Of a stretch of DNA of 42,273 bases, positions 41,805-42,012 are shown piece after piece. The notes below the pieces were generated by a model. It had not been told where the DNA came from. It saw nothing but the letters and a program-made list of their open reading frames with translations, and did not search any database. The stretch's first letter is position 1. Every line of letters starts with the position of its first letter. A program made the position numbers and the translations under genes. Source of the DNA: a virus (lineage: Duplodnaviria; Heunggongvirae; Uroviricota; Caudoviricetes); the IMG/VR virus record IMGVR_UViG_2908959467_000004; one strand, given 5' to 3'.

Positions 41805-42012
41805 TCCTTATCTGCGTAGGCGCAGAAAACAAGCTCACACATACAAGTCTTTTCTACGGGACAAAATGCAATGTGTTGCGGTTTTGTGTTGCTGGACTGA
41901 GTTTATCAAGGTTAAATACACTGGATCAACATACAGTAAGTTAATGACAGTAAAGCATACAAGCTCGATACAACTTACTGATTTTAAAATGATTTAACGG
42001 TAATCCATTGAA

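Follow-up and report, generated by a model that had tools for sequence, protein, structure and literature searches.

Phage arm, attachment core and rebuilt yfhL gene at the integrase end of an Escherichia coli prophage

When phage 21 or e14 inserts into icd, or a prophage occupies a tRNA attachment site, crossover takes place within a conserved gene and the phage attachment site (attP) carries a look-alike fragment of that gene, which keeps the recombinant gene whole. At these icd and tRNA sites it is the 3' end that is replaced, and the promoter and start stay host-derived. Here, we describe a locus at which the same principle is applied to the other end of the target: the right-hand end of the Caudoviricetes record IMGVR_UViG_2908959467_000004 from IMG/VR, a stretch of 42,273 nucleotides (the window) in which the gene for a tyrosine integrase (int) lies divergently beside the ferredoxin gene yfhL. 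Because the 5' end of yfhL is replaced, a start codon and translation signals, and presumably a promoter, must also come from the phage. The general rule is that replacement sequence is carried by an attP located inside a gene (PMC10111431); at yfhL this rule is applied to the 5' end instead of the usual 3' end, which is the less common version.

Serratia phage vB_SspS_OS31 (OS31), a mitomycin C-inducible phage with a 23-bp repeat in a Serratia 2[4Fe-4S] ferredoxin gene (Bujak et al. 2020, PMC7556043), resembles the window in several respects. Its integrase shows 76% amino acid identity over the full length, and its attachment site, spacer of about 214 bp, int and convergent helix-turn-helix (HTH) gene annotated 'excisionase' are laid out in the same way. 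It uses the same codons of a yfhL homologue, shares the spacer motifs described below and replaces codons 1-10 with phage-borne ones; it also supplies a stop immediately behind the crossover. It differs in its identity block, which measures 23 bp (TGCATCAACTGCGACATGTGCGA) versus 18 bp here, and in the rest of its genome, which is that of a lambdoid siphovirus, whereas the window holds a myovirus-type genome whose replication module has a family-A DNA polymerase. In Escherichia coli, yfhL was listed as a prophage-interrupted gene and called 'disrupted' (Bobay et al. 2013, PMC3603311), and Stx2b prophages are reported to insert into it (PMC10675304, PMC12029490). These reports concern the same host gene and species and name the locus only; the frame is rebuilt here, in contrast to the one description as 'disrupted'. 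The site and the integrase family are therefore already known. We found no description of 5' replacement or arm sites in the sections consulted of the OS31 paper (PMC7556043), and none of 5'-end replacement, the E. coli 18-bp core, a map of arm sites or the overlap of the arm with the int open reading frame (ORF) in the literature consulted.

The attachment core and the rebuilt yfhL frame

We read positions 41805-42012 as the P arm of attP, seen as the phage half of the right prophage junction (attR) of a prophage of about 42.5 kb in the 5' coding region of yfhL, with a probability of roughly 0.9. Four sequences were compared: the empty site of E. coli K-12, the junctions of the lysogens XH993 and STEC383, and the window (Table 1). 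The 18-bp sequence AATTGTGATATGTGTGAA was single in the K-12 empty site and in the window. XH993 and STEC383 each had it twice, in direct orientation, where host DNA gives way to phage DNA at either end of the prophage. Thus, in XH993, STEC383 and K-12, an identical core flanks the element and is single at the empty site, as in site-specific insertion. A left junction (attL) of the same structure was found a third time in ON470588.1. The host flanks were identical to K-12 over 250/250 positions at attL and 213/213 at attR. We found no convincing inverted core-type half-sites within the 18 bp by eye, and no crossover position is claimed.

This comparison bears out the initial annotation, which had placed an integrase-proximal prophage junction beside yfhL and had proposed alignment with prophage-free genomes to define the core. 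Of the two locations that it had offered for the core, the yfhL 5' region was the right one, whereas the 208-bp stretch at 41805-42012 is phage DNA, absent from empty sites, and the core lies 31-48 bp beyond it; the junction had been placed correctly to about 40 bp. A search for the direct repeat, also proposed there, returned AATTGTGATATGTGTGAA only once in the window, so the partner copy lies outside; an attL inside the window is ruled out by this single copy. The annotation had found no matching repeat at the left end because the window begins about 213 bp inside the left end of the prophage: in attP, base 1 of the window is found 213 nt rightward of the core.

The same boundary was seen across the species. 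In a megablast search with positions 41500-42273 against 5426 complete E. coli genomes, 5425 matched and 159 covered both int and the junction. In the listed sample of the remaining genomes, all matches began at window position 42023, ten bases into yfhL. Reciprocally, a 600-bp probe across the empty K-12 yfhH-yfhL region was unbroken in 5266 genomes and broken in 159, and in a broken genome the yfhH-side match stopped at position 3038 of the K-12 locus, which is the final base of the core. Occupancy of the yfhL site therefore amounts to 159/5426 complete genomes, or about 3%.

Scanning IMG/VR with the integrase yielded 80 loci (L022-L101), most of them prophage calls trimmed at the yfhL stop codon, like the window. 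Two metagenome contigs (L028 and L050) carried the P arm, the core and the P' arm contiguously, which establishes that the attP form exists. The P arm of L028 was identical to the window at 247 of 250 positions and to the empty host site at only 73 of 250, and its P' arm matched the phage side of attL. The relationship between attP, the bacterial site (attB), attL and attR was thereby demonstrated. No attP was found in GenBank phage records, among which OS31 alone has a related integrase, in a record linearised at the attachment site.

The adjacent tyrosine integrase would recombine attP with attB inside the AATTGTGATATGTGTGAA identity block, and the predicted left boundary reads yfhH, ATGGCGTTGTTAATCACTAAAAAATGCATC, the core and then ATCAAATAA. 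Since crossover occurs only 30 nt into yfhL, the gene is cut off from its promoter, its ribosome-binding region and its first ten codons. The P arm ends in a substitute start and ten codons, so attR rebuilds an 86-codon yfhL. The phage sequence, ATGTCTTTACTAATTACTAAACGCTGTATT, is identical to the host version, ATGGCGTTGTTAATCACTAAAAAATGCATC (MALLITKKCI), at 20 of 30 nt and is contiguous with the P arm in attP, while the host version is found at attL. It encodes Cys9, by position the first cysteine of the conserved CxxCxxCxxxCP motif; the remaining cysteines of the rebuilt YfhL come from the core and the host.

The hybrid frame is intact. Its 86-amino-acid (aa) product scored 135 bits against the NCBIfam YfhL equivalog NF033683 (cut-off, 86), and is annotated as intact YfhL by RefSeq. 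Full-length versions were found in about 85 of 95 related loci; the remainder comprised contig ends, attP forms, an extended ORF, a frameshift and an aberrant junction. The locus thus has the full-length frame, still matching its family, of a target-gene-restoring attP. By its sequence it does not fit the active-lysogeny class, in which the interrupted gene has no replacement in attP, since a replacement start and codons 1-10 are present, nor to the class targeting tRNA or tmRNA genes, since the core sits in a protein-coding gene. What remains at attL is the native promoter with an 18-codon stump, made up of 16 host and two phage codons before a stop. At the level of the reading frame, yfhL thus appears to be rebuilt, not disrupted, by the insertion.

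The linkage of this integrase with yfhL extends across genera. Relatives with 58-94% identity were found in 17 genome loci, of which 16 had a divergent yfhL about 214 bp upstream; the host genera of the yfhL-linked integrase were Kluyvera, Sodalis, Pantoea, Symbiopectobacterium, Providencia, Serratia, Erwinia, Citrobacter, Shimwellia and Shigella. The integrase itself is a divergent tyrosine recombinase. It matched Pfam PF00589 at 30.0 bits (cut-off, 27.1) and the PHROG family phrog_1 'integrase' at 1.9e-26, and the residues R268, K302/K305, R388, H416/H417 and Y429, assigned by eye, were invariant in 11 homologues. No match to it was found in PDB sequences or in NCBIfam. The convergent HTH gene is likely to encode the excisionase, judging from its position and from family matches that are weak: its product matched Pfam HTH_17 at 1.3e-5 and 25.8 bits, under the 27-bit cut-off, and weakly matched the PHROG excisionase families phrog_66 and phrog_1553, and its positional homologue is the annotated 'excisionase' of OS31.

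Several observations weigh against reading the stretch as the P arm of a site-specific prophage junction. A P-O-P' junction (O being the core) can also arise between tandem prophages, so L028 and L050 are no proof of a circular free form. In the source genome, attL lies outside the window, and the direct repeat is hence demonstrated in sister lysogens only. A few of the IMG/VR attR variants have, in the region equivalent to 42013-42042, phage-type codons ATGTCTTTACTAAT followed by host-type CACTAAAAAATGCATC (MSLLITKKCI) and then the core. Codons 5-10, left of the core, are of host type in these variants, implying that exchange or gene conversion also takes place within the 30-nt look-alike segment, outside the 18-bp block. 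In the integrase, the usual histidine of HxxR is absent (residues 383-388 read FNTMCR), as it is in all 11 homologues, and the arm-binding domain PF13356 falls below the 27-bit threshold, at 13.6 bits in the window and 17.4 bits in OS31. Finally, no convincing plus-strand sigma-70 promoter was found for yfhL: a consensus scan gave none, and a weight matrix gave a weak candidate only.

The unseen attL of the source genome also bears on whether the junction might be a fossil, that is, the end of a grounded remnant no longer able to excise, with the attachment anatomy as its scar. Many E. coli copies are indeed degraded: XH993 carries IS1 insertions and pseudogenes, the STEC383 prophage has been reduced to about 21 kb, and int is truncated in two further loci (L016 and L017). 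We nevertheless regard this explanation as doubtful. In the window int, the candidate excisionase gene, the P arm and the core have each stayed intact. At about 42 kb the element is full length, and its structural and replication modules are complete, with 97% identity to deposited phage records. Moreover, attP-type contigs of the same phage occur in metagenomes, and the relative OS31 is inducible.

Putative integrase-binding sites

If the stretch is the P arm of an attP, sites for the integrase may be expected to show as conserved blocks. In an alignment of 16 taxa the spacers were otherwise diverged, and the blocks in common were GCTCACACAT, the tandem TGTGTTGC / TTTTGTGTT (41872-41892), GTtTaTCA, ACACTG and TGATT. 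The window has ten TGTGTTRY copies, and four of them lie in the 216 bp from 41677 to 41892, at 41677, 41779, 41872 and 41885, two of these being in the int ORF; about 0.05 copies would be expected there by arithmetic from the window counts. The P' arm contains TGTGTT three times, at +58 and +70 in direct and at +114 in inverted orientation, and these copies are kept in the E. coli phage, in two other attP-type contigs and in OS31. A second motif, CACACAT, is found in the core as well as at 41692-41701 and 41833-41842; ATGTGTGAGC, the reverse complement of GCTCACACAT, resembles the ATGTGTGAAC of the core.

The motifs inside int are conserved at the level of the codon. Among 253 conserved degenerate codons in 17 int genes only 3% are codon-invariant, the proportion being 28% in codons 1-45 versus 0-2% elsewhere. 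T6, H35, I38, C39 and V40 are five of these few positions, and all five lie at motif positions. AACACA (int strand) does not vary among 15 taxa, even at sites where the encoded residues do, and the codon for T6 is ACA throughout; CAC (H35), ATC (I38), TGT (C39) and GTT (V40) are identical in all 17 taxa.

Repeated arm-type-like sites are thus found by sequence in both attP arms, apart from the core, as for a heterobivalent integrase. We infer that the TGTGTTRY repeats are arm-type binding sites of the integrase, two in the spacer, two in the first 41 codons of int and three in the P' arm, and that the CACACAT motifs are core-type-like sites. The P arm would then reach about 120 nt into int, where the motifs would serve as DNA sites, most likely as arm-type and core-like sites for integrase binding. 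This layout is akin to that of lambda-type heterobivalent integrases in that a short motif is distributed over both arms (2+2 in P and 3 in P'), a related motif is found at the core and a small HTH protein, likely the directionality factor, is encoded next to the integrase. It differs from it in that the integrase has no detectable sequence similarity to integrases in the PDB and an only weakly detectable arm-binding domain, and in that the P arm, with its putative sites, is long: it spans no less than 366 bp and runs into codons 1-41 of int itself.

A -35/-10 pair for int, conserved in position, matches the location of two of the conserved blocks. This candidate promoter gave the best minus-strand sigma-70 weight-matrix score, and in 11 of 17 taxa it occupies the same place, the end of its -10 element preceding the int ATG by 101-102 nt. 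A leftward int promoter at this position would read through the tandem repeats; as the predicted transcripts would cross the TGTGTTGC sites, autoregulation is plausible. The coincidence raises the question of whether the blocks in the spacer and in the 5' part of int could be promoter, operator or RNA elements controlling int and yfhL, in place of arm sites, all the more since synonymous constraint early in a gene can reflect mRNA structure or translation control. We consider this unlikely. The same 8-mer is present in both attP arms, with three P' copies far from int, in a layout typical of arm-type sites, and neither an Rfam match nor unusual RNA folding was detected. The two readings are, moreover, not exclusive.

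One IMG/VR record, L089 (IMGVR_UViG_2554235145_000004), has an aberrant junction in which the P arm and the core are followed by about 57 nt of the P' arm, up to its first TGTGTT, and then by yfhL from about codon 17, so that yfhL is truncated to a 25-codon ORF. Such a structure may result from a deletion or from illegitimate exchange between an arm site and the core.

Expression of the rebuilt gene and the remaining spacer

In lysogens, we infer that yfhL is transcribed from phage DNA. The weak plus-strand promoter candidate was the top hit on its strand in the closest relatives only, scoring 7.7 in the window, in Shimwellia and in the E. coli and Shigella remnants and 5.8 in Kluyvera. The lack of a clear plus-strand promoter in the phage arm would fit functional disruption of yfhL, as listed in the 2013 survey, the intact frame being irrelevant once the promoter is lost. 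This is very unlikely in our view: the hybrid ORF and its start are kept in those 85 or so loci, from at least 10 genera, with only conservative amino acid changes, which is hard to explain without selection for expression, and the gene is annotated by RefSeq as encoding intact YfhL.

Promoter activity has been reported for the native yfhL upstream region (PMC2984482). At attL, the stump with this native promoter would point into the leftmost genes of the prophage, and no terminator-like site was found between the native upstream region and the leftmost prophage ORFs. The 88-aa product of the first of these ORFs is WP_001253101.1, a hypothetical protein adjoining yfhH in lysogens, and matches phrog_17793 (unknown function); the 215-aa product of the second gave no family match. 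Tentatively, the observations might be combined as follows: yfhL, the gene of a conserved low-potential ferredoxin, would lose its own promoter and be transcribed from an attP arm amid putative integrase sites and the int promoter, and so be tied to the state of the prophage; the native promoter would drive the cargo at 1-975; and the attP arm within int codons 1-41 would double as coding sequence. This combined picture is possible, but the odds are against it.

A third ORF in the same block of low G+C content (35%), at 1270-1815 (181 aa), matched PHROG families of unknown function only (phrog_2154); its STEC383 counterpart is annotated as a serine acetyltransferase. A defence system was considered for the left-end cargo ORFs and rejected, as they gave no PADLOC or Pfam match.

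The initial annotation had described a non-coding stretch of about 200 bp between the integrase start and yfhL, with CATACAAG twice and a hairpin, CTGCG-TAGG-CGCAG, and no tRNA or tmRNA gene. The spacer measures 214 bp, both small elements are present where listed in Table 1, and neither ARAGORN in the window nor Rfam in 41500-42273 returned any hit. The elements themselves turned out to be unremarkable. Among 2000 dinucleotide-preserving shuffles of the 208-bp interval, an exact direct repeat of at least 8 bases occurred in 28%, and the count of 5-bp hairpins was matched or exceeded in 25%; the folding z-score of the int leader was +0.65, no better than that of shuffled sequence. In the homologous spacers of 16 taxa, CATACAAG and the hairpin were not conserved, the hairpin being retained in close relatives only; of the first CATACAAG copy just the first 3-4 bases overlap a conserved block, and the second lies in a variable segment. 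We therefore rejected both as functional sites; the conserved motifs are instead TGTGTTRY and CACACAT. A core inside 41805-42012, for example at CATACAAG (found only here in the window) or the hairpin, with yfhL as untouched host DNA, is the usual first guess for intergenic DNA next to an integrase but is practically untenable and is refuted by the empty-site, lysogen-junction and attP comparisons, since homology in the listed sample of prophage-free genomes starts at 42023, the stretch is contiguous phage DNA in attP, host codons 1-10 of yfhL differ from the window and sit at attL, and the repeats are unconserved and at chance level.

Table 1. Features at the two ends of the window, with putative and candidate elements named as such.
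Feature	Position	Strand	Remarks
Leftmost prophage genes	1-975	plus	ORFs 1-267 (88 aa) and 328-975 (215 aa), 35% G+C; downstream of attL and the displaced yfhL promoter and co-oriented with it
Candidate excisionase gene	40204-40404	plus	66 aa, HTH; converges on int, 4-bp overlap with int 3' end
Integrase gene (int)	40401-41798	minus	465 aa; ATG at 41798; same protein annotated by RefSeq in strain XH993
P arm of attP, phage side of attR	41677-42042		Includes 41805-42012; reaches int codons 1-41; left limit 41677 is the outermost conserved motif
Putative motif pair in int codons 34-41	41677-41701	minus	GCGCACACAT at 41692-41701, 7-base spacer, TGTGTTGC at 41677-41684
Putative arm-type motif TGTGTTAC	41779-41786	plus	Inside int codons 4-7
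Non-coding spacer	41799-42012		214 bp between int and yfhL
Hairpin CTGCG-TAGG-CGCAG	41812-41825		Within the int leader
Putative core-like motif GCTCACACAT	41833-41842	plus	Conserved block in 16-taxon alignment
Repeat CATACAAG	41840-41847 and 41956-41963	plus	Sole two copies in the window
Putative tandem arm-type repeats TGTGTTGC	41872-41879 and 41885-41892	plus	13-bp period; best-conserved non-coding blocks, 16 taxa, at least 10 genera
Weak candidate yfhL promoter	41893-41922	plus	TGGACT, 18-bp spacer, TACACT; weight matrix
Candidate int promoter	41900-41929	minus	-35 TTGATC (reverse complement of 41924-41929), 18-bp spacer, -10 TAAACT (reverse complement of 41900-41905)
Hybrid yfhL gene	42013-42273	plus	86 codons; ATG at 42013
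Substitute yfhL start and codons 1-10	42013-42042	plus	Contiguous with the P arm in attP; host version at attL
att core (O) AATTGTGATATGTGTGAA	42043-42060	plus	18 bp; yfhL codons 11-16 (N-C-D-M-C-E)
Host part of yfhL	42061-42273	plus	Codons 17-86 and stop; identical to K-12

Related records and meaning for the prophage family

Several GenBank phages deposited as 'complete genome', namely, vB_EcoM-611R5, 606R2 and relatives (ON470588.1, ON470579.1, ON470582.1 and ON470593.1), are of the same prophage type. They are 97% identical to the window over about 83% of positions 2400-24900, and the integrase was unmatched in them in DNA and protein searches. The far end of ON470588.1 (34000-42739) holds the host genes yfhH, pgpC and tadA together with attL, the core lying at position 6401 of that locus. 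Given these host genes and attL, and the absence of an integrase match in any of the records, they appear to be mis-delimited prophage regions.

A Raoultella scottii contig (L015; int at 2399-3907) encodes a 90%-identical integrase without yfhL or the P-arm motifs, and its int codons 35-40 are changed. Upstream of int, on the same strand, are a large primase-like ORF and a small AlpA-like HTH gene. This is possibly a satellite-type element that reuses this integrase. Decayed copies at the yfhL site, many of them in E. coli and Shigella (XH993, STEC383, L016 and L017), show, besides the IS1 insertions and the reduction to about 21 kb mentioned above, an int truncated at residue 366 and one frameshifted yfhL. 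Remnants thus build up at this site alongside intact prophages.

None of these findings alters current understanding: the mechanism is an ordinary one, at an already reported non-tRNA insertion site. The boundaries of a prophage family that occupies about 3% of complete E. coli genomes, and is present in many other Enterobacterales, can now be stated, with AATTGTGATATGTGTGAA as the core. Annotation is corrected in that yfhL is better regarded as rebuilt than as disrupted and in that some deposited 'phage genomes' appear to have been cut wrongly. The locus also provides a clear example of the 5'-end version of the replacement fragment, in which gene-start signals and coding sequence both come from the phage. 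The target is held constant by its coding role in the CxxCxxCxxxCP motif, which may explain why one integrase family is found at the same site across genera.

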